From Centroscyllium fabricii (Eukaryota): a DNA stretch of 64,000 nucleotides. The notes under the pieces are model-generated. The model saw nothing but the letters and a program-made list of their open reading frames with translations, was not told where the DNA came from and searched no databases. Numbering within the stretch: position 1 is the first letter of the stretch; the number at the start of each line of letters is the position of its first letter. Position numbers and translations under genes: made by a program. The stretch is from NCBI GenBank assembly GCA_051313645.2, contig JBNRSN020000003.1:323268001-323332000 (forward strand), in the 5' to 3' direction. This document shows, piece after piece, positions 1 to 39,382 of the stretch.

Positions 1-844
1 TAAACTAGTCGACGTTTATGAAGGCTCTGTGTGTGATCATTAATAGATATAACAGTAACATTGTCCAGGTACGGGAATGTTGCCTCTAACGCATTCTCAT
101 CTACCATACGGTCCATTTCCCATTGGAAAACGGAAACTCCATTCGTTACCCCGAAGGGTACCCTAGGGAATTGGTACAGGCGCCCATTTGCTTCAAAAGC
201 CGTGTAAGGGCGGTCGTCTCTTTTTATGCGGAGCTGGTGATAGGCAGACTTTAAGTCAATAGTGGAGAACACACGATACTGGGCAATCTGGTTCACCATC
301 CCGGAGATGCAAGGCAAGGGATAAGCGTCTATTTGCGTATATATGTTGATGGTCTGGCTGTAGTCGACCACGAGCTGTTTCTTTTCCTTCGTTTTAACCA
401 CCACTACCTGAGCACGCCACGGGCTATTACTATTTTCGATGATACCCTCCCGTTGTAGCCTTCCTACTTCTTCTTTTATAAATTGTTTATCTTCCGAACT
501 GTACCGTTGACTTTTGGTCATGATAGGTCTACAGTTTGGGGCGTGGTTCGCAAACAGGGATGGCGAGCTTATCTTTAAGGTGGAGAGGCCGCAGACTGTG
601 AGCGGGGGCTGTGATCCGCCATATGCAAGTGTGACGCTCTCGTGGTGGCACTGAAAATCTAGGCCTAGAATTAGTTTCACGCAGAGCTGTGGCAATACGA
701 AGAGTTTAAAATCTTTATACTCTGTGCCCTTAACAGTCAGTGTTACTTTACAGAAACCGGTTACCTCCGAAGTGAGGGACTTAGATGCCATCGCGATTTT
801 GCTCCGGGTAGGGTACACCTTTAATGAGTACGGTTTGATGCGGC

Positions 845-1122
845 TGTGGTAACCATATATATGTATATAAATTACCACTGTAATATTGGTGCCAATATTG
901 CCACTGTACATAGTAAGATGTTGCGACACTGTCGTGGGGCCAGGTCAGCCACACCTCTAACTCCTCCCCCAGGTGAGGCCCTTTATAGGTGAGGACTGAC
1001 CGGACCCGACCATTCTGTACCTGTTGTTCGTTCGGAGTATAGCTCCTATGTAAGTCAATAAAAGCCTGTAGTTAAGGTCACTACTCGTCTTTGGCTTTAT
1101 TGAGTTAATTGACGATACGTCC
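845..1122 (+). mobile_element. Solo LTR inserted into the protease region of the Gypsy element
   Basis: Starts TGTGGTAACC, has AATAAAAGCC, ends GACGATACGTCC. 5-bp TSD GCGGC at 840-844 and 1123-1127. Clearly similar to the LTRs at 33718-33994 and 38201-38477. Confidence 0.92.
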
Positions 1123-2137
1123 GCGGCTAGGGTGAATAAAACTCTCAGTACTCTCGCAATCGATTAAACACTTCATCGGGTGTCCATTTACCTTAACGTC
1201 CATCATAGACTTCGATCGTGGATGCGGTCTGGACTGGTCGACCGTGATTGAGGCGATCGTAGAACCATGGGCGGCTGCTGAAACTATATCAAATTCCGGG
1301 ACCACATGTAGGGCCGTGGAGTCGGTATCTGGTATGGGTATCCCCTTACATACGTTGCTGAAATATCCCCATTTCTTGCACTTGAAACATGTGGCATCTC
1401 TCGCGGGACATCGGTGTCTGGAGTGCTAGAGCTGGCCGCAGAAGTAGCATCTTGGTCCGCGGGACATCGCTGCAGTGGTGGGGCTGGGTGGAGACTCGCG
1501 TGGTGTAGGGCTGGTCCAAGGCCTGGATGGAGAGGATGGCGCCTCCTTACTCGGCACGCACGAGGCTGAGAGGGGAGCATGGCCTGACGCATAGGTCTCG
1601 GAGTTCTTCTGTCCCCCATCCAGCGATCAAGCTGTAGCCACGGCTGTCTTTAGATCCAGAGTGTCCTTTTCAAGCAACCTCTGCCTAATGTAATTTGATT
1701 GAAGGCCCGATATAAACTTATCGCGAACCGCTTCTTCCTAGTATGCGATGGCCGTCACAGCCTGGTATTTGCAGTCCTTCGCCAGGGCCTTTAGGTTCTG
1801 CAGAAAATCATCCAGCGATTCCTCCGGTAGTTGCCTGCGGGTAGCCAAGAGATGCTGGCATACACCTCGTTAACAGACTTCAGGTATTGGGTCTTAAGAG
1901 TCGCGAGCGCATCGTCATATGTAGTAGCGTCCGAAATTAGCGAGAAAATCCAATGACTTACTAGGTTAGTCAATAGGCCCAGTTTGTTGACCCCATCATC
2001 GAGTGATGCAATGAAATGTTCGAAACACCGGAGCCAATGTGCGAATTTCTTCGGTGCGCCTGCCGAATGTGGATCACAGTCCAGACGCTCTAGCTTCAGG
2101 AATCTGTCCAACCCTAGGAGTTCTAAGCTACTAAAAT

Positions 2138-2428
2138 TGATGTGCCTTTAATAGAGACTGAGACAGGTAGTTATAATTCAAACAGTTGGCTTTTAATAGC
2201 TTAGAACTGGACTGCACTGGAGCCACATGTTGCCTTACAGAAATGGCTTCTCAGACTGAACAAGGAGGCGGAGCCAGGGGCGAGGTCACAGATCTGGACA
2301 ATCAATGGCACAACAGAGTGAACACAGCATTCCTGGCCAACCAAGAAAACAGCAGGGTTGCAATAGATTACAATAGGGAACTATACACAGGTAGAATGAG
2401 GTATACTTATAAGGCTTATTTCACCACA
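2138..2428 (-). repeat. 5' LTR of the Gypsy element
   Basis: Minus strand TGTGGTG...GGCACATCA with ATTAAAAGCC poly(A)-like signal; gag begins about 27 nt downstream. Confidence 0.85.
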
Positions 2429-2442
2429 ACCTGTTATTCCTC

Positions 2443-4226
2443 ATGGCTGATCCCAGTCCCAGGGAGAGAGCTCGCCAGTTCACCAACTGGGCATTGGAGG
2501 CATTCGTCGCGGCAGTCGAAAGGAGGGCCGTGCTATTCCTGGCCAATGGCAGGAGGCCATCACCCCAGGTCATCCAGGCAATGTGGAGGGAAGTGACCCA
2601 GGATGACTCGGCCAGCAGTGTGGTCCTCAGGACCCTCACACAGTGCCGTAAAAAATTCAACGACCTCACTCAGGTGGTCAGGGTGAGCACATGCTTTAAC
2701 AAGTCCTATATACCAGCACCTGAACCTCAGTCTGTACACATTGCACAAACTCCACACCCCCACCGCTCACCCACCAAGCATCTCCTCCTACTGAAACTCG
2801 CATCCACATCTCTCGCCTTGCCTACAATCACAGCTATTCAACTACGGCAGGCACATCCCCCCCCCCAAACACATAGCTGCACACTCACTCACACTCGTTC
2901 CTTTCTCTTGCAGGCCAAGCTGGCCGTCGGCAACGTCGACCCTCTAGGGGGCAACAACGGTATGTTCATCCCCACTCTCTCTCTCATCTCACTTCCCCCT
3001 CACACCACAAGCCTTTCCCGCTTACCACCTCCTGATACTGTCTGCATTCCTTGCTCCCTTCCTGCCCCCTGCCCTCACCTTAATGCGAGTCTTGTGCTTT
3101 TATACTTTCAGAGAATCAGCAACCAGATGACCAGCCTGTCCCTGAACCCCCCACTGAGAATGAGGCGGGTGAAGAGGATGAGGAGCAAAGCCCCGCGTCA
3201 CTGCATCTCTCACCCGCCGGCACCACCTCAGATACTGGCACTACGCCATCTTTAGAGGCAGGTTTAGTAGAGGGGTCGGCACTGGGTGTTACACCGGGGA
3301 CGAGCGGGCTACAGCAAAGCCAGGGGGAAAGGGGAAAGGGTAGCTCAAGAGCCAGCTCCCTGGAGGGTGAGTTCGTGCGCCAGTTCTGCTGCACAGGACT
3401 CAGGTGAGGACCTCAATGGGGAGGTTTCCACAAGAAGGGTGATGGCCATACACACTGAGATGATGAGTGCAATGGCAAGGGTGCTCGAGAGCTTATCGGC
3501 AATGGTAAGGAGTCCGCCTCCAACATTGTACAGAGCTCTGCGCACGCCCTGGAGCTCATCCTTGGCAGTCTGCCAAGGATAGTGGACTCCCAGAGAGACC
3601 GTGCGGATCCAGACCTCGTGCCGCGTGTCATGGGCGATGTGGCAGCATCCATTGCATCACAGGTGGAAGCCACGCAATGTCTTAGTGCTGTAATGGAATC
3701 AATGGTTGCTGCCATCGAGTCTCAGGCTGCTCTCATGCAGTCTCAGCTTGATGCCACAAAGGTTCTGACTGCTGCCATCATCACTGGGTCCACCACAATC
3801 CACCGGGGATCTCACGGTGTCGCTGCAGGCCAGCAATCTGTGCTCCAGCAGATTGGTAGGGATGCTGAGGTGCTGCCCCAGGGGAGTGGCAGTGGGTCAG
3901 TGGAGCAGGAACCTGCTGTTCTCTCTCAGGATGACAGCATTCCTGCTCCCTCCACTGCCACTCTGCTATTGCACTTGTCGCTGTCTGTCATCCAGCCAGG
4001 CCAGACTGCCGCCGCCCATCCTGAGGTGATGCAGTCTACAGCCGGGCCCTCCAGGCCCAGAGCTGGTCGACGGCGTCCTGCAAGGCCATCTGGAGTCTCT
4101 GGAACTGACACTCAGCAGCCTTCCACCAGCCTTGATGCAGCCACTGGGGAGACACTACGTAGGAGCAGTAGATTAGGAAAAAGCACTGTAAAGAGGGGAA
4201 GTAAGGGTTTGCACAAGAGTGATTAG
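2443..4226 (+). pseudogene. Harbinger Myb/SANT-like DNA-binding protein; predicted exons 2443-2682, 2914-2959, 3112-4226; frameshifts in the last exon
   Basis: RARQFT..ALE...MWREV...RTLTQCRKKFNDL trihelix/Myb-SANT motif. Donors AGG|GTGAGC and ACG|GTATGT; acceptors with pyrimidine tracts (TTGCAG, TTTCAG). Acidic, then Q/A/S-rich C-terminus. Confidence 0.8.
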
Positions 4227-21062: not shown

Positions 21063-23413
21063 AATACTCAACACAGTTATTGAAATTACTGAGGTGTACC
21101 TGACCTGAGTGTATTCAACACAGTTACTGAAATGACTGAGTTGTACCTGACCTGTGAATACTCAACACAGTTACTGAAATTACTGAGATATACCTGACCT
21201 GAGAACACTCAACACAGTTACTGAAATTACTGAGGTATACCTGACCTCAGAGTACTCAACACAGTTACTGAAATTACTGAGATGTGCCTGCCTGAGAGTA
21301 ATCAACACAGTTACTGAAAATTACTGAGGTGTACCTGACCTGAGAATACACAACACAGTTACTGAAATTACTGAGGTGTACCTGACCTGAGAATACTCAA
21401 CACAGTTACTGAATTTACTGAGGTGTACCTGACCCGATAATACGCAACACAGTTACTGAAATTACTGAGGTGTACCTGACCCGAGATTATTCAACACAGT
21501 TACTGGAAATTACTGAGATGTGCCTGACCCGAGAATACTCAACACAGATACCAAAATTACTGAGGTGTATTTGACCTGAAAATACTCAACACAGTTACTG
21601 AAATTACTGAGGTGTACCTGACCTGAGAGTACTCAACACAGTTACTGAAAATACTGAGTTGTACCTGACCTGAGAATACTCAACACAGTTACTGAAATTA
21701 CTGAGATATACCTGACCTGAGAATACTCAAGACAGTTACTGAAATTACTGAGGTGCACCCGACCTGAGAATAATCAACAGTTACTGAAATTACTGAGGTG
21801 TACCTGACCTGAGAGTACTCAACACATTTACTGAAATTACTGAGGTTAGCCTGACCTGAGAATACTCAACACAGTTACTGAAATTACTGAGGTGTGCATG
21901 ACCTGAGAATACTCAACAGTTACTGAAATTACTGATGTGTACCTGACCTGAAAATACTCAACACAGTTACTGAAATTACTGACGTGTACCTGACCTGAGA
22001 GTACTCAACACAGTTACTGAAATTACTGAGGTGTACCTGACCTGAAAATACTCAACACAGTTACTGAAATTACTGAGGTGTACCTGACCTGAGAATACTC
22101 AACACAATTACTGATATTAATGTGGTGTACCTGACCTGAAAATACTCAACACAGTTACTGAAATTACTGTGGTGTACTTGACCTGAGAATACTCAACACA
22201 GTTACTGAAATTACTGAGATATACCTAACCTGAGAATACTCAAGACAGTTACTGAAATTACTGAGGTGTACCTGACCTGAGAGTACTCAACACAGTTACT
22301 GAAATTACTGAGGTTAGCCTGACCTGAGAATACTCAACACAGTTACTGAAATTACTGAGGTGTGCCTGCACTGAGAATACTCAACACAGTTACTGATATT
22401 AATGTGGTGTACCTGACCTGAAAATACTCAACACAGTTACTGAAATTACTGAGGTGTACCTGACCTGAAAATACTCAACAGAGTTACTGAAATTACTGAC
22501 GTGTACCTGACCTGAGAGTACTCAACACAGTTACTGATATTAATGTGGTGTACCTGACCTGAAAATACTCAACACAGTTACTGAAATTACTGAGGTGTAC
22601 CTGACCTGAAAATACTCAACACAGTTACTGAAATTACTGAGATATACCTGACCTGAGAATACTCAAGACAGTTACTGAAATTACTGAGTTGTACCTGACC
22701 TGAGAGTACTCAACACAGTTACTGAAATTACTGAGGTTAGCCTGACCTGAGAATACTCAACACAGTTACTGAAATTACTGAGGTGTGCCTGACCTGAGAA
22801 TACTCAACACATTTACTGAAATTACTGAGTGTGCATGACCTGAGAATACACAACACAGTTACTGAAATTACTGAGGTGTACTTGACCTGAGAATACTCAA
22901 CACAGTTACTGAAATTACTGAGGTGTACCTGACCTGATAATAATCAACAGTTACTGAAATTACTGAGGTGTACTTGACCTGAGAGTACTCAACACAGTTA
23001 CTGAGATTACTGAGGATAGCCTGTCCTGAGAATACTCAACACCGTGACTGATATTACTGAGGTGTGCATCATGTGAGAATACTCAACACAGTTACTGAAA
23101 TTACTGAGGTGTGCCTGACCTGATAATACTCAACACAGTTACTAAAATTGCTGAGGTGTATGTAATGATATTGAGACTTCCGGCAGGAAGTCGGATGAAC
23201 TCTGCTTATGAACTTCCAGTGACATCACTTCCTGTACATGTCACTTCCTGTGTAGTAGTATAAATTCTGCTGCTGTTCAGTCTGAGATAATGCTTCCCTA
23301 TGTAAATATGTTAAAACTCTCAACTCTGTAAATAGCTGATTAAAGCTTTGCTTAAAGTATTTGATGTGTAGGTCGCTTTTGTCACATCAATTTAATCAGC
23401 TACTACGCTCAAA

Positions 23414-24556
23414 ATGTTTGAAACCTTCGGACAAAAAGGAACTGAGGACCCCAGGGAACCACCCATCATGGAGAGCCTCTTCAAACCCAGAACTCTTGAC
23501 CTGGATCCGAACTCGCCATCAGCCGCAAAGGTATGGAAGCACTGGTACCATACTTTTGAAAATTTCCTGGAAGAATGTGATGCGAGTGATACTGCTAAAC
23601 TCCGGCTACTGGTAAACTATGTATCCCCTAACGTGTATGAATATCTGGACAAATGGGATAACTTTAATGAAGCAATCCGAGCTCTTAAAGAACTGTATAC
23701 AAAGCCACCCAACGAGATTTATGCTAGACATTTACTGGCCACGGCCCGGCAAGGGCCGGAGGAATCTATCGGTGAATTCCTGCAGACACTGCGCAGGCTC
23801 AGTACGAACTGTAACTTTCAGGCAGCCTCGGCCGCGCTTTACCGTGAGGAAATGATCCGCGATGCCTTCATCAGCGGGATTTCCTCCCCACTGATACACC
23901 AGCGTCTACTGGAGAGTAAGGCCCTAGAGTTGCAAAAAGCTTTCGAACTGGCTTGCTCTCTTGATCTAGCAAAAAGAAACTCAGATCTTTATCAGTGGCC
24001 CAGAGCTCGAAGTGCTGCTGTAACTTCAAACAGACCTTTCAAGGGGCCACAGGTGAACCCAATCATAGACGACTCTAGCCCTGATGAGCTTAGTGATGAG
24101 GAGGAGGATGACCCTACACTAGCAGCCTCTTGGCAGTCCAGGAAAAACTGCTTCTTTTGTGGAGATATCTTCCACCCAAGAAAATTCTGCCCAGCCCGTA
24201 ATGCAATCTGCAGCTACTGCAGCAAAAAAGGGCACTTTGCAAAGGTGTGCCAATCCAGAACTTCTGCAAGAGCTAATCAAGCTAGGCCCTACAGAGCTGC
24301 TCCAATTAAGGCCTACCAGGGCGCATCAATTAGGGCCTATCAAGACGCACCAGCCAGGACCTATCAGGCTCCCACTCGAAGGAGCTCGCCTAGAATCACT
24401 GCTGCACTCTGTGCTACCATGCCAATAACGGCTGCATGCCCTCAGAATCTGGTCCAGGCAGCCACAAGGGTCACAATTAATGGACATACTTTTGATGCCC
24501 TAATTGACTCTGGTAGCACTGACAGCTTAATAAGGGGCAAATCATCAGAAAATTGA
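23414..24556 (+). CDS. gag: Gypsy Gag with zinc knuckles plus start of the aspartic protease
   Basis: CFFCG..H..CP and CSYCSKKGHFAKVC knuckles, ALIDSGST protease motif; frameshift near 24545. Confidence 0.9.
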   Translation: MFETFGQKGTEDPREPPIMESLFKPRTLDLDPNSPSAAKVWKHWYHTFENFLEECDASDTAKLRLLVNYVSPNVYEYLDKWDNFNEAIRALKELYTKPPNEIYARHLLATARQGPEESIGEFLQTLRRLSTNCNFQAASAALYREEMIRDAFISGISSPLIHQRLLESKALELQKAFELACSLDLAKRNSDLYQWPRARSAAVTSNRPFKGPQVNPIIDDSSPDELSDEEEDDPTLAASWQSRKNCFFCGDIFHPRKFCPARNAICSYCSKKGHFAKVCQSRTSARANQARPYRAAPIKAYQGASIRAYQDAPARTYQAPTRRSSPRITAALCATMPITAACPQNLVQAATRVTINGHTFDALIDSGSTDSLIRGKSSEN

Positions 24557-27513
24557 AACTGCACACTTATCCATCAGACCAGGCAATTGCAATGGCCCAA
24601 TCTTCACTTAATACTAGAATCTCGGGCTTCTGTATTGTGGACTTAACCCTTAATGGGCGCCTGTATCCCTCCACCCGTCTCTCAGTCCTTAACGATCTAT
24701 GTAGTGATATCATTCTGGGACTAGATTTCCAAAGACAACATAACAAGCTGACCATTGAGTTCGGGGGTTCTAAACCCGGACTCGTTATCTCTAAATCATC
24801 ATCCAAAACGCCATTTTGTGCACTGTCAGCAGCCTCTCTGGACGAACCGTCGTTATTTACCAGCGTTACGCCTCAGTGCAAGCCGATAATAACTAAGTCT
24901 CGGCGCTTTAGTCAGGAGGATCGATCCTTCATTGATACAGAAATCTCTCGACTCCTGGCCGAGGACATCATTGAACCTTGTTCATCGCCTTGGCGGGCTC
25001 AGATCGTCATTGTTAAAAACTCCTTGAAATCTCAGAAGAAACGCCTATGTATCGATTACTCTCAGACCGTTAATCAATATACGGATTTGGATGCTTACCC
25101 ACTGCCACGTATCGATGACATGGTGAATAAACTGGCTGAATATTCACTATTTTCGACTTATGATCTGAAGAGTGCTTACCATCAGGTACCCCTAGGGGCC
25201 TCAGATAAGAAATATACAGCCTTTGAGGCTAACGGACAATTGTATCAATTTTGCCGTCTCCCATTCGGAGTCACCAACGGAGTAGCCGTCTTTCAACGAG
25301 CCATGGATGGCTTAGTGAAGCAAGAAGACTTGAGGGACACTTTCCCTTATCTCGACAATATTACGGTTGCTGGCCATGACCAACAAGAACATGACGACAA
25401 CCTTCGAAGATTTCGGGATGCACTTTATCGTCGCAATCTGATTTTAAATGAAACCAAATCCGTGGAATCACAGCCCACCATTAACATTCTCGGCTACTGT
25501 GTGGGTAATGGCATCATCAAGCCTGATCCTGAAAGACTTCGGCCCCTCCAGGAGCTTCCTCCACCTAACAGTCCTGCTTCCTTGCGTCGGGCCCTCGGCC
25601 TATTTGCCTACTATGCGAAGTGGATTCCTGATTTTTCTGACAAAATTCAACCTTTGTTGAATGCCAGGACATTTCCATTAGGAACAACGGCCATTACAGC
25701 CTCTACTACCCTTAAACAACATTTGAAGACAGCAACCCTCCACTCCATCGATGAGAACCTCCCATTCGTGGTCGAATGTGACGCTTCAGAGGTGGCGATC
25801 TCAGCTACCCTCAATCAGGAAGGTCGCCCTGTAGCTTTCATGTCTAGGACCCTATAGGGTGCCGAAGTGCACTATCCACCGGTGGAAAAAGAAGCCACGG
25901 CCATCATTGAGGCTGTACGAAAATGGAACCATTTTTTAGCTCGCCGACACTTCACGCTGATAACGGACCAGCGATCAGTAGCGTTCATGCTGGACAACCG
26001 CAAAAGAACCAAAGTCAAGAATAATAAAATACAACTGTGGAGGATGGAATTGGCCTCTTTTGGCTATACTATTCACTATCGCCCTGGTAAAGATAATGTG
26101 GCCCCGGACACTCTTACTCGAGCATTCTGCGCTGCTACATCACCCTCCACTCTCGCAGATATTCATGATGGATTATGTCATCCTGGTGTGACACGTATGT
26201 TACATTTTGTACGGTCACGAAATCTCCCATTCTCAACCGGAGACATCAAGTAAATGTGTTCAGAATGCAGAACCTGTGCTGAGCTAAAACCCCACTTTTT
26301 CCGGCCCCCGGCTGGTGTACTTATACATGCGACACAACCAATGCAATGACTGAGCATTGATTTTAAGGGCCCTGTACCCTCGTCCACTAGGAACATATAT
26401 CTGCTTACGATGGTCGACGAATATTCACGTTTCCCATTCGCCTTCCCCTGCCCTAATATGCTGTCTTCCACAGTAATCAATTGTCTCGAGCAGGTATTCG
26501 CGCTCTGTGGCATGCCAGCTTACATCCATTCAGATCGGGGTCCATCTTTCATGTCCACTGAACTTAAGGACTACCTCTCGGAAAGAGGTATCGCGACAAG
26601 CAAAACAACACCATACCACCCCATCGGTAACGGCCAGGTGGAAAGATATAATGGCATCATATGGAACTCTGTACGCCTTGCCCTGAAATCCCAGGGTCTA
26701 CCCAACCAGTAATGGGAGATGGTGTTACCAGATGCATTGCACTCCATACGGTCCTTGCTTTCCACAGCCACGAACACGACGCCTCATGAACGGTTCTTCA
26801 GTTTCCAGCGTCGCTCATCGTATGGAGCATCACTCCCTTCATGGCTGACCACTCCAGGGCCCGTATTGCTCAGAAGATATGTCCGAACTTCCAAGCATGA
26901 CCCTCTTGTGGACGAGGTAGAACTAACTGAGGTCAACCCCAACTACGCTCACATACGACACCCTGACGGACGAGAGTCTACAGTATCGTTGCGGGACCTG
27001 GCACCCTGCCCATCAGGACCTAGAGGGTCATCTAGGGATAATACCCTACCGGGAAACTCCAGAGAACCACTGGGTACCACTCTTCAGGACCCCGATCAGG
27101 CACCAATTACCTTTGAGCCGGTAGGATCACGCACTCGGAGCTTCGACTCACCTGGTACCTCATTCCAGGATGCTGATCAATCCTCAACTGACACGGAGCC
27201 CATAGGGGCTCGTACGCGGAGTCATGATCCTCCCTGTGCCCCACGCCAAAATGCCAATGGGCCATCGACAAGCTTGGTACCTTCTCCCGACCAAGGGCAG
27301 ATCAACTCTGAACCTATTGGATCTCGCACACGGAGCCATGATTTCCACAACCCATCGCCGGGTAATCCAGGCCATGTTGGATTTGACCCAGATTCGAAGA
27401 CCCGCAAACGGCCCAGTAACTCAGACATTGACCATCAAAACACTCTACCAACCCAAGAGAACGAACTTAAACGTATGCGGCTCCTCCTCGTACATCTACT
27501 TCAGAATATTTGA
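24553..27513 (+). pseudogene. pol: Gypsy Pol (RT, RNase H, integrase) with four in-frame stops
   Basis: IDYSQTVN, YLDNI, VECDASE, HHCC, VDEYSR, HSDRG and NGQVER; stops near 25855, 26251, 26347 and 26710. Confidence 0.93.
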
Positions 27514-30500
27514 TTTCTGCCTCATAATCTTCTAGGAGGGAAGAATGTAATGATATTGAGACTTCCGGCAGGAAGTCGGATGAACTCTGCTTATGAACTT
27601 CCAGTGACATCACTTCCTGTACATGTCACTTCCTGTGTAGTAGTATAAATTCTGCTGCTGTTCAGTCTGAGATAATGCTTCCCTATGTAAATATGTTAAA
27701 ACTCTCAACTCTGTAAATAGCTGATTAAAGCTTTGCTTAAAGTATTTGATGTGTAAGTCGCTTTTGTCACATCAGTGTACCTGACCTGAGAATACTCAAC
27801 AGTTACGGAAATTACTGAGGTGTACCTGAGCTGAGAATACTCAACACAGTTCCTGAAATTGCTGAGGTGAGCCTGACCTGAGAATACTCAACACAATTAC
27901 TGAAATTGCTGAGGTGTACCTGACCTGAGAATACTCAACACAGTTATGGAAATTATTGAGTTGTACCTCACCTGAGAGTGCTCAACACATTTACTGAAAT
28001 TACTGAGGTGTGCCTGACCTGAGAATACTCAACACAGTTACTGTAATTACTGAGGTGTACCTGACCTGAGAATAATCAACAGTTACTGAAATTACTGAGG
28101 TGTACCTGACCTGAGAGTACTCAACACAGTTACTGAGATTACTGAGGATAGCCTGACCTGAGAATACTCAACACCATTACTGATATTACTGAGGTGTGCC
28201 TGACCTGAGAGTACTCAACATAGTTACTGAAATTACTGAGGCGTGCCTGACCTGAGAATACTCAACAGTTACGGAAATTACTGAGGTTTACCTGACCTGA
28301 GAATAATCAGCACAGTTACTGAAATTACTGAGGTGTACCTGACCTGAGAATACTCAACATAGATACTGAAATTACTGAGGTGTGCATGACCTGAGAATAC
28401 TCAACACAGTTACTGAAATTACTGAGGTGTGCCTGACCTGAGAATACTCAACACAATTACTGAAATTACTGAGGTGTGCCTGACCTGAGAATACTCAACA
28501 CAGTTACTGTAATTACTGAGGTGTACCTGACCTGAGTGTACTCAACACAGTTACTGAAATTACTGAGTTGTACCTGACCTGACAATACTCAACACAATTA
28601 CTGAAATTACTGAGGTGTGCATGAGCTGAGAATACTCAACACAGTTACTGAAATTACTGAGGTGTACTTGACCTGAGAATACTCAACACAGTTACTGAAA
28701 TTACTGAGATGTACCTGACCTGAGAATAATCAACAGTTACTTAAATTACTGAGGTGTACCTCACCTGAGAGTACTCAACACAGTTACTGAGATTACTGAG
28801 GAGAGCCTGACCTGAGAATACTCAACACCATTACTGAAATTACTGAGGTGTACCTGACCTGAGTGTACTCAACACAGTTACTAAAATTGCTGAGGTGTAC
28901 CTGGCCTGAGAATACTCAACAGTTGCGGAAATTACTGAGGTGTACCTGAGGTGAGAATACTCAACACAGTTACTGAAATTGCTGAGGTGATCCTGACCTG
29001 AGAATACTCAACACAATTACTGAAATTGCTGAGGTGTACCTGACCTGAGAATACTCAACAGAGTTACAGAAATTACTGAGGTGTACCTGACCTGAGAATA
29101 CTCAACACAGTTACTGAAGTTACTGAGGTGTACCTGACCTGAGAGTATTCAACACTGTTACTGAAATTACTGAGTTATACCTGACCTGAGAATACTCAAC
29201 ACAGTTACTGAAATTACTGAGATATACCTGACCTGAGAACACTCAACACAGTTACTGAAATTACTGAGGTGTACCTGACCTGATAATAATCAACAGTTAC
29301 TGAAATTACTGAGGTGTACCTGACCTGAGAGTACTCAACACAGTTACTGAAATTACTGCGGTATGCATGACCTGAGAATACTCAACACAGTTACTGAAAT
29401 TACTGAGATGTGCCTGACCCGAGAATACTCAATACAGATACCGAAATTACTGAGGTGTACCTGACCTGAGAGTACTCAACACAGTTACTGAAATTACTGA
29501 GGTGTACTTGACCTGAATATACTCAACACAGTTACTGAAATTACTGAGATATACCTGACCTGAGAGTACTCAACATAGTTAATGAAATTACTGAGGTGTG
29601 CATGACCTGAGAATATTCAACACAGTTACTGAAATTATTGAGGTGTGCCTGACCTGAGAATAATTAGCACAGTTACTGAAATTACTGAGTTGTTCCCGAT
29701 CTGAGAATAATCAACACAATTATTGAAATTACTGAGGTGTGCATGACCTGAGAATACTCAACACAATTACTGAAATTACTGAGGTGTGCATGACCTGAGA
29801 ATACTCACCACAGTTACTGAAATTACTGAGGTGTACCTGACCTGAGAATAATCAACACAATTACTGAAATTACTGAGGTGTACTTGACCTGAAAATACTC
29901 AAATTACTGAAATTACTGAAGTGTACCTGACCTGAGAGTACGCAACACAGTTACTGAAATTACTGAGATGTGCCTGACCCAAGAATACTCAACACAGATA
30001 CTGAAATTACTGAGTTGTACTTGACCTGAAAATACCCAACAGTTACTGAAATTACTGAAGTGTACCTGACCTGAGAGTACTCAACACAGTTACTGAAATT
30101 ACTGAAGTGTACCTGACCTGAGAATACTCAACACAGTTATTTACTGAGTTGTACCTGACCTGAGAATACTCAACACAGTTACTGAAATTACTGAGATATA
30201 CCTGACCTGAGAATACTCAAGACAGTTACTGAAATAAATGAGGTGTACCTGACCTGAGAATAATCAACAGTTACTGAAATTACTGAGGTGTACCTGACCA
30301 GAGAGTACTCAACACAGTTACTGAAATTACTGAGTTGTTCCTGATCTGAGAATACTCAACACAATTACTGAAATTACTGAGGTGTAACTGACCCGAGAAT
30401 ACTCAACACAATTTACTGAAATTACTGAGGTGTACCTGACCTGAGAGTACTCAACAGAGTTACTGAAATTACTGAGGTGTGCCTGACCTGAGAATACTCA

Positions 30501-33023: not shown

Positions 33024-34014
33024 CTTCACTGGCTGTAAGACACTTTGGGACATCCTGAGGTGGTGAAAGGTGCTATACAAATGCAAGACTTTCTTTCTTT
33101 CTTCCTTTGACCTGAAAATTCTCAACACTGACACTGACAAAGAAATTCAGCAGGAGGTTAGCAGTGGTGCTACCGGGTATTGCCCGCTCTTCTGTGCGCG
33201 CAGATCACAACGTCATCTCCAGGCGCAGTGCCCCGGTAGCGCTTCGGGAGAAAAATTACCCCTGCGCGCCCCGCAGCAGCGGCAGGCGATGTTACTGACT
33301 GCTGCAGGGGTCGCGAACAGCGCGGCCGGCCGCTCACGGGGCGCCAATTGAAGGCACGGTGGCTGGCCGACAGGGAAAAGAATTGCCAATTTAAAAATTA
33401 AATTTCTGAGCACCGGACATGGGCTGGAGCACTCCCGCACCCTGGTGCTCCAGCCGATGCCCAAAAAAATATGTAGAGCTTGCAGCGGGGTGCCCCGCCC
33501 TTTAATTGAGGGAAGACCCCCCCTGCAATGCGGCAGTGGGTCTGCTGAGCAAATCGCCCCAGATCAGGACATTTCCTGCCTCTTGCGCTCCAAGCGGCAA
33601 GTGGAGCGCTTGATTTAATGCTCCACTTCCCTCTTGGAGCAAAAAATGGGAATTTAACTAATATCTGAATGGTTAGCGCCTGGCGCCAAGTTTTCAACCA
33701 TTTTTGACTAAGTGCCCTGACGTATCGTCAATTTGTCTTAATAAAAGACTAGACGAGTAGTTACCATAACTATAGGCTTTTATTAACTTACTTTGGAGCT
33801 ACCCTCCGAACGAACATCAGAACAGAATGAGGGAGCCCCGGTCAGTCCTCACCTATAAAGGCCTCACCTGGGGGAGGAGTTAGAGGTGTGGCTGACCTGG
33901 CTCCACGACAGTGTTACAAAGCGGTGTATCATACAAAGCCAATGTTGGCGACAATATTACAGTGGTAATCGTATATACAATATGGGTTACCACATTCACC
34001 CCTTCTTGAAAATT

Positions 34015-36300
34015 TTAAGTCCGGCGGGGTGAATGGACAGAGCAGTTAATTATGAGCTTGTCCGGCGGTCGTGTCAGCCTGGAGGACTGCCGGGGCTCCG
34101 ATAAAGGTTCGCCGTGTTCCGTACTGCTCGAGTCCGGTGGTGGTGACAGTGGCTCTGGTGCCGTGATTTCGGATGCTGGTGGTCTCAATTGGTCCGAGCC
34201 ATCGGAATGGTGGTCTTGGGCTGGCCACGGCTGGGGCTCTGGAAACCTCGGAGGCCATCGTAGATGTAGGGGGTGTTCTAGATACTGTGGCTGGGCGGGC
34301 TGCTGCCCGACCAGGGGCTCTGCTGTGGTGCTCCCGGCAGACGCCAGGTCCCTGATGGATACGGTGTCCTCGCGCCCATCCGGGAACTGCACGAAGGCAT
34401 ATTGCGGATTCGCATGCAGGAGCTGCACCTTGTCCACCAGGGGGTCGGTCTTGTGGCCACGGACGTGTCTCCTAAGGAAGACCGGCCCCAGTGTCGTGAG
34501 CCATGGAGGAAGAGCTGTCCCCGAAGTCGACTTCCTGGGGAAGGAAAAAATCAAGTCATGAGGGGTGGTGTTAGTGGCTGTGCACAGGAGAGAGCGTATT
34601 GAATGCAGCGCGTCTGGGAGGACTGCCTGCCAATGGGCCACTGGAAGGCCTCTGGATTTCAGAGCCAGGGTGACCGCCTTCCAGATGATCCCAGTCTCCC
34701 TTTCTACCTGGCCGTTCCCCCAGGGGTTATAACTGGTCGTTCTGCTCATGGCAACCCCTTTCTGGAGCAGAAACTGACGCAGTTCATCGCTCATGAATGA
34801 TGACCCTCGGTCGCTATGGATGTAGCTGGGGAGACCGAAAATGGCGAACTGCGTGGTGAAGTGTTTTATCATCGTTGCGCTCGTCATATCTGCGCAGGGG
34901 AAGGCGAAGGGGAAGCGGGAGAACTCATCTACGACCGTGAGGAAGTATGAGTTGCGGTCGGTGGTGGGGAGGGGGCCATTGAAGTCCACGCTTAGACGTT
35001 CAAAGGGGCGGGTGGCCTTAATGAGGTGCACCGTGTCTGGCCGGAAAAATTGGGGTTTGCACTCGGCGCAAACAGGGCACTCTCGGGTCATAGCCTTGAT
35101 CTCCGTGATGGAGTAGGCGAGTCTGGTGACACCCGGGTGGCAAAGGCGGTCGTGGAGGTCCTTCAGCCGGTCTAGCTGGGCACTGGCGCACGTTCCCCTG
35201 GACAGTGCGTCCGGGGGTTCATTGAGTTTACCTGGTCGGTAAAGAATGTCATACTCGTAAGTCGAGTGTTCGATCCGCCACCGCAGGATCTTATCATTCT
35301 TGATCTTACCCTTCTGTTTATTATTAAACATAAACGCCACCGACCGTTGGTCGGTGAGAAGGGTAAAACGCTTACCGGCCAGGTAATGACGCCAGTAGCG
35401 CACGGCCTCCACGATGGGTTGGGCCTCCTTTTCCACTGCAGAGTGGCGAGCTTCGGGTCCCTGTAGGGTGCGGGAGAAAAACGCTACGGGCCTGCCTGCC
35501 TGATTCAGGGTGGCAGCAAGGGCAATGTCCGAAGCGTCGCTCTCCACCTGGAAGGGAATGGATTCATCAACAGCGAGCATGGTCGCCTTGATGATGTCTT
35601 CCTTTATCCGGGCGAATGCCGTTTGGGCTTCTACCGAGAGGGGGAAGACGGCAGCCTTGAGGAGTGGTCTAGCCTTATCTGCGAACTGTGGGACCCATTG
35701 TGCGTAGTAGGAGAAAAATCCTAGGCATCTCCTCAAGGCTTTGGGGTTGTGAGGTAGGGGCAGTTCTTGTAGGGGGCGCATACGCTGTGGGTCGGGGACG
35801 AGGACCCCGTCCTCCACCACGTATCCGAGGATGGCGAGCCGGTCTGTATTAAAGACACATTTGTCCTTGTTATACGTAAGGTCCAGCTTATCTGCCGTGT
35901 CAAGGAATTTGGCCAGATTGGCATCGTGGTCCTGCTGGTCGTGGCCGCAGATGGTCACGTTGTCCAGGTAAGGGAAGGTTGCCCGCAAATCGTTCTGGTC
36001 AACCATGTGGTCCATCTCCCATTGGAACACTGACACTCCGTTGGTCATGCCGAAGGGGACCCGGAGGAAGTGGTAGAGCCGACCGTTCGCCTCGAAGGCG
36101 GTGTACGGGCGGTCGGCTTTCCAGATCGGGAGTTGGTGATACGCCGACTTAAGGTCGATCGTGGAGAACACCTTATATTGGCCGATCTGATTGACCATGT
36201 CCGAGATGCGGGGGAGGGGGTAGGCGTCGAGCCCGGTGTAGCGGTTGATAGTCTGGCTGTAATGGATAACCAGCCGCTGTTTCTCGCCAGACTTCACCAC
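34015..36300 (-). CDS. pol: Gypsy Pol RT-RNase H-integrase, open for 761 aa but frameshifted from the upstream protease
   Basis: (D/H)YSQTINRY, YLDNV, VESDASD, HHCC, VDEFSR, HSDRG and NGQVER. Confidence 0.93.
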   Translation of the reverse strand: MVKSGEKQRLVIHYSQTINRYTGLDAYPLPRISDMVNQIGQYKVFSTIDLKSAYHQLPIWKADRPYTAFEANGRLYHFLRVPFGMTNGVSVFQWEMDHMVDQNDLRATFPYLDNVTICGHDQQDHDANLAKFLDTADKLDLTYNKDKCVFNTDRLAILGYVVEDGVLVPDPQRMRPLQELPLPHNPKALRRCLGFFSYYAQWVPQFADKARPLLKAAVFPLSVEAQTAFARIKEDIIKATMLAVDESIPFQVESDASDIALAATLNQAGRPVAFFSRTLQGPEARHSAVEKEAQPIVEAVRYWRHYLAGKRFTLLTDQRSVAFMFNNKQKGKIKNDKILRWRIEHSTYEYDILYRPGKLNEPPDALSRGTCASAQLDRLKDLHDRLCHPGVTRLAYSITEIKAMTRECPVCAECKPQFFRPDTVHLIKATRPFERLSVDFNGPLPTTDRNSYFLTVVDEFSRFPFAFPCADMTSATMIKHFTTQFAIFGLPSYIHSDRGSSFMSDELRQFLLQKGVAMSRTTSYNPWGNGQVERETGIIWKAVTLALKSRGLPVAHWQAVLPDALHSIRSLLCTATNTTPHDLIFSFPRKSTSGTALPPWLTTLGPVFLRRHVRGHKTDPLVDKVQLLHANPQYAFVQFPDGREDTVSIRDLASAGSTTAEPLVGQQPAQPQYLEHPLHLRWPPRFPEPQPWPAQDHHSDGSDQLRPPASEITAPEPLSPPPDSSSTEHGEPLSEPRQSSRLTRPPDKLIINCSVHSPRRT

Positions 36301-36334
36301 TACTACCTGGGCCCGCCAGGGGCTGGTGCTGGCT

Positions 36335-38175
36335 TCAATTATCCCCTTCCTTCAGCATACGCCCGACCTCCGACCTGATAAACGTGCGATCCCCCACACT
36401 GTACCGCCGACTCTTTGTAGCAATAGGTTTGCACTTGGGGTCGAGGTTGGCGAACAGTGAGGGGGGGTCGATTTTCAGGGTGGAGAGGCCGCAGGCCGGG
36501 CTCCGCTTTGGGAAGGGACTGTCCCGGCTACTGACGGTGAGGGGGGGCAAGGTCCCGCCGAACTCCATTGTCACGCTCTTGAGGTGGCACTGGAAATCCA
36601 GACCTAGTAAGGCTGGGGCACACAACTGCTTGAGGGTGTACAATTTAAAATTACGGTACACGCAACCCTTGACCGTGAGCGTGACGGAGCAGTAGCCGGT
36701 GACCACCGCGGTGTGGGACTGTGAAGCCAGGGAGACTTGGTAGTTCGTGGGCAGGATCTGCAGTCCATAGCGCTGCGCTGTATCGGGGTGTATAAAACTC
36801 TCCGTGCTTCCAGTGTCAAACAGACAATTGGTAATATGGCCGTCAATTTTAATCGGCATGATTGAGTCAGAAAGGTTGTGTGGCCTAGCCTGGTCCACTT
36901 TAGGTATGGCTGAGGCCGAAGTGTGCCTTTGTGTGTGGGGGCCCCCTGCTGGTTGGGGCTGTACACAAAATGGCGGCGCCCCTGGCTCGCACATGGTGGG
37001 GCCCTGGAGACAAAATGGCGGCGCCGAGGGGTCGCACATGGCGGGCCGCTGGAGACAAGATGGCGGCGCCGAGGGGTCGCACATGGCGGGCCGCTGGAGA
37101 CAAGATGGCGGCGCCGGGGGGTCGCACATGGTGGGCCGCTGGAGACGAGATGGCAGCGCCCGTGGTTTGCACGTGGCGGGCTGCGGTGACTGGGTTGGCG
37201 GCGCCCGTGATTCGCATGCAGTGGGCCGCGCTGGGTCTGCCGCTGGCGTTGGGGGGTCGCGCTTGGCCGGCCTTTGCCGCATCAGGGTGGGAGATGGGGG
37301 CGCTTTCCTTCTACCCCCGGACCGTCGCTGGATCGCGCTGCTATTGCAGCTTACCTGAGGTCTGGCGGAGCTTTCACAGGCTGCGCTGTTGTACCTGGAG
37401 TTGGGCGCTGCTGGTGCTGATCTGCAGGTCTTCGCATAGTGTCCCTTTTTGGAGCACCTCTCACAGGTCGCGGTCCTTGCTGGGCAACTCGCTCGTGGGT
37501 GCAGTTCCTGGCCGCAGAAATAGCACCGTTTGTCCTTTGCGGCTGTCGCAGCCATCGTGGGGGTCTCGACCCGTTGTGGTGCTGCCCAGGCCTGGGCCCG
37601 TTGTGGCGCGGCCCACATGTCGTAGCCCTGCGGGTTTGTGCCGCTGTACGCCTGCAGCTTATTGCGTGCTCCTTCAACGGAGTTAGCTATGGAGATCGCC
37701 TCCTCAAGGGTCAAAGAGTCCTTTTCGAGCAGCCGCTGGCGGGCTTCCACGCACCTCAGGCCAGTTACATACACATCACGGATGAGGAGATTCGCCTCCT
37801 CTTCTGCTGTCCGGGCTTGGCAGCCACAGACCCGTACCAGGGCCTGGAGCGCTTGCTCAAATTGTTCATTAGTCTCACCCGGTAGTTATGGTCTGGTCAC
37901 GAGCACATGTCTGGCGTAGACCGAATGGACCAGGCGCTCGTAGCATTTCCTCAGCTTTTCCACTGCCCCGGGAAGGTTTTGGCATCTCGGATGAGGGAGA
38001 ATACTCGGCTGGATATCCTAGACTGGAGAACCTGCAATTTGTTCTCGTCGGTTGTAGCCTTGGCGGCGTCCATATAGGCCTCCAGGAGACCGAACCAGTG
38101 TTCGAACGTGGTGGCGGCGGCTGGGTCCTGTGGACTGATGTCCAGCTTCTCTGGCTTTACCGCACCGCTCTCCAT
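36335..38175 (-). pseudogene. gag: Gypsy Gag-protease, frameshifted, with an internal 45-bp tandem repeat
   Basis: CYFCG..H..CP, CERCSKKGHYAKTC and CLFDTGST; 15-aa repeat MCDPSAPPSCLQRPA. Confidence 0.9.
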
Positions 38176-39003
38176 TTCAAAATTTTTAAGTTAAGAAAAT
38201 TGACGTATCGTCAATTTGTCATAATAAAAGACTAGACGAGTAGTTACCGTAACTATAGGCTTTTATTAACTTACTTTGGAGCTACCCTCCGAACGAACAT
38301 CAGAACAGAATGAGGGAGCCCCGGTCAGTCCTCACCTATAAAGGCCTCACCTGGGGGAGGAGTTAGAGGTGTGGCTGACCTGGCTCCACGAGAGTGTTAC
38401 AAAGCGGTGTATCATACAAAGCCAATGTTGGCGACAATATTACAGTGGTAATCGTATATACAATATGGGTTACCACATGCCCCAAATGGCCCTTTCGAGT
38501 AATATTCTCTCCCTGCAGCACAAAAAAATCTTGCCGTCACAGTGCTTAAAATCTGGCGTTTTTTAAATATTGCAGTTACTAATGGATTTCTAATTCTATT
38601 GCAGTGCGGGTTTCACGGCTGCTAAGTTCAAGAAATAATGACAGTTAGAATAGGCTTTCTTTGATAGCCATCCTCACACATCATTTTACTCAAACCTTGT
38701 CAGACATGTCTGATGTGTTTGTCTCCGCATCCGCTCACCAGATACATTTCAGGACACATATGTAAAGGGAGCACTGACAATCCTGTTAGTGGGTAGATTA
38801 TTATGATTAATTGCATAGAGCAGTGTGCGGAGAGACATGGCAATGGATGGGTTGATACTTGTGTGGGAAACTGCTTTGGAGAGGGGCGGACAAGGGACAC
38901 CCACTCATCCTGGGTAAGCCAGTACATTTTTTTTTAACCTGAACTTTGATTTGAAATATTTCTCCTTTAACTCTTTTTATCATGCGTTTGCAAAATAGAG
39001 ATA

Positions 39004-39382
39004 CAGGTCCGACACCGTTAATCCGGAACCGGTGGGACCAGGCCGGTGCTGGACTAGTGAAAAATCCGAACGATTGAAGCTTTGGCGAGCGCATGCGCAG
39101 ACCATTCAAAATGGCCGCTGTGAAGGCCGGCAGCCATTTTGAATGGTCTGCGCATGCTCTCACCGAAGCATTAATCATTCGGGGAGAGGCCCGGGCATGC
39201 GCAGCCAAGCGCGGTGGCCATTTTGCGCATACGCAGACCAGTCTGGCAGTCGGGGTGAGGCCCGGGCATGTGCAACCAAGCGCGGCTACCATTTTGCGCA
39301 TGCGCAGACCAGGCAGCCGGATTCGTTCCGGACGACTGAAGTTTCCGGATTACTGGTGTCCGGATTAACGGTGCCGGACCTA
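39004..39382. mobile_element. Tc1/mariner (Tigger-like) MITE
   Basis: TIRs of about 24 bp (CAGGTCCGACACCGTTAATCCGGA), TA on both sides, internal palindromic repeats. Confidence 0.85.

Follow-up and report, generated by a model that had tools for sequence, protein, structure and literature searches.

A PBS complementary to its own LTR and probable self-priming in a clade of animal Ty3/Gypsy retrotransposons

How does an LTR retrotransposon begin reverse transcription when the sequence just after its 5' LTR is complementary to the LTR itself? The question is raised by an element, called E1 here, at the start of the window, by which we mean the whole 64,000-nucleotide stretch of Centroscyllium fabricii DNA that was analysed. 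A sequence-only reading had proposed a functional pairing between LTR and leader in place of a tRNA primer site, and this overall view stands, without the G-U wobble and the likeness to an 18-nt retroviral site on which it partly leaned. The reading that we favour, with a probability of about 0.65, is that the element primes reverse transcription with its own capped 5' RNA fragment, cut after a poly(A)-type hexamer, and not with a tRNA.

The LTR/leader duplex of the window element

E1 is a decayed Ty3/Gypsy retrotransposon. One family copy (L361) has the Pfam domain order zf-CCHC, protease, RT, RNase H and integrase, and two of the three E1-family copies retrieved are whole, 4.27 kb long, with a 5-bp TSD and a PPT. 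The window copy is interrupted by the solo LTR at 845-1122 and by further insertions, and no 3' LTR of this copy was found within 10 kb; upstream of the window (window 1-55 and locus L211), nested insertions break it further. Two more elements of the same clade lie in the window, E2 at 23161-27774 on the plus strand and E3 at 33718-38477 on the minus strand, with LTR-pair identities of 99.6% and 98.9%. E2 sits within a long array of a 47-bp satellite (window ~8,300-31,800; ~180 copies of 85-90% identity) that is split by LINE and LTR insertions, and a palindromic-repeat cluster with a 25-28 bp hairpin occupies window 39,091-39,311.

An RT tree places E1, E2 and E3 in one cluster with 31 metagenome relatives, apart from two other elements of the window, and E3 is the sister of E1. 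The best relative with a solved structure, with E2 as the query, is the Ty3 RT, and the nearest named homologues of E3 come from Scyliorhinus, Hypanus and Mobula (72-80%), followed by cnidarians (~60%). No chromodomain was detected in L361 (down to E 0.1), in the E2 and E3 ORFs or in the precomputed domains of 120 homologues. The RT catalytic motif is YxDN in 98 of these homologues and YxDD in 22, with both states scattered over the tree. The PBS of E1-E3 has neither a TGG start nor a match to a tRNA 3' end, and an unrelated element near window 47,425, which served as a control, carries an ordinary TGG site. The labels Mag and CsRN1 are, as we assume from motifs, those of tRNA-primed Gypsy clades.

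The 18-bp pairing that had been read from the sequence is real. On the minus strand, 2208-2191 pairs with 2136-2119 at 18 of 18 positions, of which 17 are Watson-Crick and the one at window 2131 is U-G; beyond both edges the match breaks off sharply. One arm lies inside the LTR and the other begins 1 nt outside it, as had been stated. The LTR limits are secured by 29 other genomic copies, which part from the window sequence upstream of 2428 (the best-scoring among 1,676 candidates, with 30 of 40 listed matches retrieved), and by loose ends of contigs, drawn from 4 of 6 public runs, which cluster at 2138 and 2428. Gag starts 7 nt past the duplex, and the earlier claim that no TGG-type site precedes it holds over the 26 nt that separate LTR and gag. 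Retention in other copies, which had been suggested as a check, is clear: 18 of the 29 pair at all 18 positions by Watson-Crick bonds and 11 carry scattered changes. We found neither copies devoid of the complement nor an LTR boundary that encloses both arms.

Within the window, the minus strand contains 15 duplexes of at least 14 bp (arms within 300 nt, at most three G-U pairs), that of E1 among them, and the E1 duplex is the sole 18-bp one with at most one G-U pair, the palindromic repeat at 39.1 kb excepted. Folding of the minus-strand RNA, also suggested earlier, gave a modest signal over 2105-2208 (z -2.43) that weakened over 2100-2240 (z -1.01); folding energy by itself is a weak pointer to the duplex. 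No Rfam family matched window 2000-2500.

The argument that the U-G pair favours an RNA-level structure fails. The wobble G at 2131 occurs in 0 of the 29 other copies, exact junction patterns number 4 with the G against 295 with the Watson-Crick base, and ~99-100% of contig depth at this position (three runs, related organisms) is the Watson-Crick base. Being a rare substitution (4 of 299 exact junctions), the wobble is uninformative on RNA versus DNA. That a retroviral PBS also measures 18 nt is a coincidence, as the duplex in relatives spans 11-19 bp, mostly 13-14. The real backing for the pairing is covariation across families together with by-products joined at the duplex. Overall, the E1 duplex is real and the idea behind it likely right, with the RNA-level argument from the G-U pair wrong. 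The features are collected in Table 1.

Table 1. Features of E1 and of related elements in the window, with the basis of each assignment
Feature	Window position	Strand	Basis or remark
5' LTR of decayed Ty3/Gypsy element, family E1	2138-2428	-	291 bp, TG..CA; ends set by 29 copies and loose contig ends
LTR arm, predicted 3' end of self-primer	2191-2208	-	pairs with 2119-2136; predicted cut between 2191 and 2190
AUUAAA poly(A)-type hexamer within arm	2192-2197	-	sequence reading; putative poly(A)-signal role
PBS, 1 nt after LTR, complementary to own LTR arm	2119-2136	-	pairing and position; 18/29 copies fully Watson-Crick
G of G-U wobble, rare substitution	2131	-	0/29 copies; 4 vs 295 exact junctions; contig depth
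Predicted initiator CC-A-TTTC, A at 2244	2241-2246	-	54 nt before arm 3' end; analogy to sister families, and L241
Cryptic att-like site TGTCC, LTR position 129	2296-2300	-	left end of recurrent 402-bp fold-back insertions elsewhere in genome
Remains of gag, protease and RT	56-2111	-	stops, frameshifts, nested insertions; RVT_1 E 3e-13
Solo LTR, E3-like family, inserted in E1 element	845-1122	+	TSD GCGGC
E2 arm/PBS pair, 12 bp (arm 23333-23344, PBS 23391-23402)	23333-23402	+	12/12 pairs in 29/30 copies
E3 arm/PBS pair, 13 bp (arm 38273-38261, PBS 38199-38187)	38187-38273	-	13/13 pairs in 25/30 copies

Covariation of arm and PBS across families

As judged by sequence comparison, the duplex is a mark of the whole clade: in sister families as in metagenome relatives, the PBS matches the arm of its own LTR. 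E2 and E3 have the geometry of E1 with different sequences, perfect over 12 bp in 29 of 30 copies and over 13 bp in 25 of 30, respectively. A search pattern that fixes only the ends of this geometry has 73,798 exact hits in the genome, versus 1 for the control. The first 30 hits in list order comprise 10 arm variants, each matched by its own PBS at the positions that the pattern leaves free. Among these hits, the pairing run averages 13.0 bp with the own arm versus 7.6 across variants, and it reaches at least 13 bp in 25 of 30.

The same holds for metagenome relatives. The 80 loci comprise 23 with an LTR pair, most of which have the duplex, and 57 without. Rescanning of 31 loci without an LTR pair yielded 22 with E1-like geometry, 2 with a variant and 7 in which the duplex was not found. 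For closer comparison, 26 relatives were picked for having the duplex (L151 and L032, in which the anchor was not found, were left out). In this selected set, positions 1-13 are Watson-Crick paired in 24-26 relatives, and own pairing has a median of 13.5 versus a cross median of 4 (650 pairs). All 26 arms end in AAA followed by purine-C (AAA/RC). The arm hexamer is A[AU]UAAA in most relatives, with GUUAAA or GAUAAA in some. Covariation extends to a single-copy compensatory pair that separates L105 from L106. Relatives of the element were looked for in viral contigs and none were found; a search for copies of the primer outside LTRs returned matches swamped by PBS antisense.

Additional regularities surround the arm. 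In 23 of the 26 relatives, the base ten positions from the 3' end of the predicted primer is G, whatever the length of the A-tract, and all 26 have C as the second base past the arm; this G and C possibly form a recognition signal for the predicted cut. One metagenome element, L099, has an arm much like that of E1, with compensatory pairs, and an RT that is not sister to E1's.

The covariation bears on an alternative in which the helix only masks the poly(A) signal of the 5' LTR and an unknown host RNA acts as the primer. The hexamer indeed lies inside the helix in most families. However, the PBS varies with each family's own LTR, and a shared host primer could not follow such changes; the 3' arm also keeps a constant distance of 1 nt to the att end, no Rfam family matches, and the by-products described below require DNA that ends in PBS sequence. 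We consider masking as the sole function highly improbable. With priming by the element's own RNA, the element may in addition gain from having its 5' poly(A) hexamer masked.

Fold-back by-products and the predicted RNA start

What is new in this analysis is a set of reverse-transcription by-products, preserved in the genome as fossils, whose junction coincides exactly with the duplex. The first example (L181; G000:C1 near 732,650) is a 535-bp palindrome flanked by a direct 5-bp TSD, in which a whole LTR is followed by the PBS, which runs on as the reverse complement of U3. A direct TSD around a fold-back unit means that the unit pre-dates integration, so DNA that ends in PBS sequence arises during reverse transcription and pairs with the arm. 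This is what is expected of a true PBS whose primer has the arm sequence. A targeted search for E1 gave 33 fold-back junctions versus 295 normal ones, and fold-backs hence make up about a tenth (33/328) of the exact E1 junctions with a Watson-Crick PBS.

All 33 E1 fold-backs were examined, and in 19 of them the sequence begins at LTR 127-129, from where it heads back toward the end of U3. Ten are independent 402-bp insertions with a perfect 5-bp TSD, in which sequence from U3 to the arm is followed by a minus-strand copy extending past the 5' arm. No private variants were common to the 13 units tested; the 402-bp insertions are therefore recurrent and do not go back to one founder, and a self-propagating 402-bp family, which we had considered, was discarded on the same grounds. 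Four of the 33 (L220, L224, L226 and L236 of G000) are E1 elements with the arm-PBS loop inverted. We had predicted beforehand that the fixed left ends of fold-backs would mark the RNA start. This prediction failed in E2, where left ends fall at a cryptic att-like site inside the loop in 8 of 26 loci, with a TSD. The fixed left ends are cryptic integrase ends.

In 11 of the 26 E2 loci, extension of the strand that ends in the PBS went on through U3 and PPT, so the 3' arm was also accessible. A TRIM-like E2 mini-element of ~850 bp, built of LTR, PBS, inverted U3 and PPT region, PPT and LTR, occurs at L243, L247, L249, L251, L253, L257, L259 and L267 (G000); one junction is common to these 8 of the 26 loci, so the mini-element appears to have spread after the fold-back error. 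Extension through U3 and PPT, like the structure of the E1 402-bp products, is what would be seen if the copy of the arm in the 3' R were the primer, with the RNA closed into a circle or dimer and the PBS paired to the RNA 3' end after trimming. Copying from that end would continue into U3, yet stops accumulate at the initiator, as described next, and plus-strand DNA folding back on itself accounts for the U3-ended products. Priming from the 3' R is quite unlikely in our estimate.

The position of the RNA start was read from by-products of E3-like families. Of 700 fold-back junctions counted, the first 90 in list order were read: 43 reach the U3 end, 13 of which are whole palindromes with a TSD, and 47 stop earlier. 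An initiator could be located for 44 of the 47 early stops (L270, L329 and L330, with none in the best reference, were left out). It lies 51-54 nt before the arm 3' end, and a TATA-like box stands 28-33 nt ahead of the initiator A in 74 of 83 LTRs. Relative to this A, 18 of the 44 stops fall at -1 to +1 and 18 are short by 4-29 nt; beyond it, 3 lie within +2 to +6 and 5 far past, and the stretch from +7 to +41 has none. The 18 stops at the initiator represent 8 distinct junctions, with 9 loci sharing one gag junction (4-nt microhomology) and 3 another. A wall at the initiator means that the template ended there, which fits the 5' end of a capped RNA. The wall does not prove which copy of the arm primes, because mis-annealing of plus-strand strong-stop DNA to a second, uncut RNA would produce it too.

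For E1 itself there is one clean stop. In L241, the copy ends 1 nt before it reaches the corresponding initiator, which is at LTR 185 (window 2244) and precedes the arm end by 54 nt; no TATA box is present at the matching place. By analogy to the sister families, the RNA of the E1 clade likely starts ~53-54 nt before the arm 3' end (window 2244 in E1). The arm would then not be the 5' tip of the RNA, unlike in Tf1. When the RNA is folded from the predicted start, the helix is the dominant predicted structure, with a pair probability of at least 0.95 at 17 of 18 positions in L003. A TGTAAG at -31, considered as a TATA box for a start at the arm, was dropped as unsupported. No poly(A)-ended contigs occur among the retrieved metagenome loci.

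A start at the arm would reproduce the Tf1 geometry: an alternative transcript would provide a primer of 11-18 nt, and the transcript from the upstream initiator would not prime. The sharp 5' limit of pairing at 13-14 bp and a conserved, initiator-like A-G-pyrimidine at primer positions 11-9 agree with such a start, and two metagenome contigs (L103 and L138) begin within 2 nt of the arm, a weak hint, as contig starts cannot show RNA starts. Against this, the early stops form a wall only at the upstream initiator, as seen with a search pattern that is blind to stops within the first ~20 nt, and no TATA box precedes the arm by 30 nt in the 26 relatives. We hold a Tf1-like start to be very unlikely.

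The wall is equally predicted if priming occurs in trans, by short capped RNAs that end at the poly(A) site of the 5' LTR and, once trimmed or cut so as to end in ...AAA, bind the PBS on a genomic RNA that has itself stayed uncut. Such a primer would terminate exactly at the poly(A) hexamer, and LTR 184 is where one duplicated E1 event (L218/L219) begins, as would be seen with a template left uncut and copied right up to its start. The strongly predicted cis helix would nonetheless mask the hexamer, and some relatives without a canonical hexamer still keep AAA/RC. Self-priming in trans seems unlikely to us on this balance.

Proposed mechanism and comparison with known systems

The complementarity, its position, the family-specific covariation and the integrated by-products whose junction is the duplex are established. 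On these observations we built a model of priming by the element's own 5' RNA. Transcription would start at the initiator ~53-54 nt before the arm 3' end, and the arm would fold onto the PBS. Cleavage of the RNA between ...AAA and RC would follow, probably through the element's own RT-RNase H, by analogy to Tf1, and the capped 5' fragment of ~53 nt would prime minus-strand DNA. Plus-strand synthesis would next copy the 3' part of the primer, by which the PBS is rewritten from the LTR in every cycle and the two arms stay matched. Such rewriting would explain both the tight covariation and the single-copy compensatory pairs. Plus-strand synthesis that overruns would copy the LTR to the RNA start and then jump into leader, gag or pol, and PBS-ended DNA that folds back on its own arm would give palindromes that integrase inserts. 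The model leaves one feature unexplained, namely how plus-strand synthesis normally comes to halt 13-18 nt into a primer of 53 nt. A related possibility is that the clade at large, to which at least 70,000 junctions of the genome belong, uses a capped primer of ~53 nt that ends at the hexamer, perhaps made by host 3'-end processing at the 5' LTR and active in trans. Such a primer would constitute a priming route distinct from both tRNA and Tf1 priming that can be read from integrated by-products; we hold this view to be doubtful.

Self-priming has been tied to the Tf1/sushi chromoviruses and a few plant lineages, as far as the accessible text of PMC4600332, PMC10085805, PMC11042837 and PMC6317226 goes. 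Here it likely operates in an animal clade that is very abundant and lies outside the chromoviruses, and with a different geometry in which a long capped primer ends at the hexamer. Self-primed elements would evade host control exerted via tRNA fragments, and annotation tools that require a tRNA PBS would miss them. A self-complementary PBS also has a visible cost, to be seen in the share of fold-backs among exact E1 junctions. The by-products, in turn, allow RNA starts to be located and priming to be traced with genome sequence as the only data.

A search of the accessible literature found no account of the geometry, of the clade's priming or of the by-products. The clade's priming is not described in the accessible parts of PMC3601003, PMC12471100, PMC6934838, PMC5006619 and PMC2774666, and a prior description may exist elsewhere. 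The size of the whole E1-family copies, near 4.2 kb with short LTRs, fits Cigr-1. In the accessible text of PMC6238403, Cigr-1 (Ciona, molluscs) is a small, non-chromoviral clade of animal Gypsy elements, and its priming is not described there. Placement of the E1 clade in Cigr-1 is a tentative lead, to which the available portions of PMC6238403 and PMC3670739 added no evidence.

Plant Tcn1 (Gypsy) and TAR (Copia) provide a second comparison. Their self-primer was deduced from complementarity of at least 10 bp located 0-5 nt after the 5' LTR (PMC6317226, in the part available), and by the same rule E1 qualifies, its 18-bp match beginning 1 nt beyond the CA and a TGG site being absent. Tcn1 and TAR belong to other lineages and hosts than E1, and the available part of that paper describes neither a link to a poly(A) signal nor a long capped primer. 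The E1 helix also resembles another retroviral structure in one respect. The 5' poly(A) hairpin of HIV-1 holds a promoter-proximal hexamer in a helix within R-U5, and priming is by tRNA. The hexamer is thus kept in a helix in both, whereas in E1 the partner strand is the PBS itself.

The closest precedent is Tf1 of Schizosaccharomyces pombe. RNA cutting and self-priming are known for this element (PMC4600332, PMC10085805, as seen in part), and its RNase H is needed for self-priming, according to a title in the reference list of PMC4600332. Like E1, Tf1, Tf2, Tj1 and the Tf1/sushi chromoviruses have the Ty3/Gypsy domain order and no tRNA PBS. Both groups have a sequence just after the 5' LTR that is complementary to their own LTR, and both copy the PBS into single-stranded DNA at the cDNA 3' end (for Tf1/sushi, the accessible text of PMC4600332, PMC10085805 and PMC11042837). 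There are also differences. Unlike Tf1/sushi, the E1 clade lacks a chromodomain, and its RT motif is mostly YxDN. The Tf1 primer is 11 nt long, compared with a duplex of 12-18 bp in the E1 clade, where the arm ends in a poly(A)-type hexamer and, by analogy with the sister families, is likely located ~36-40 nt inside R and not at the 5' tip of the RNA. Side helices of the 'pretzel' type gave no family-specific signal in 22 families (own 6.4 versus cross 6.1, and own 4.6 versus cross 4.9), in a simple complementarity test that is crude and that short helices could escape. With no chromodomain, no hint of side helices by this crude test and an arm probably inside R, we do not place the E1 clade in Tf1/sushi. 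Its self-priming would be a variant of a known mechanism, one that appears to have left unusually direct traces in the genome.
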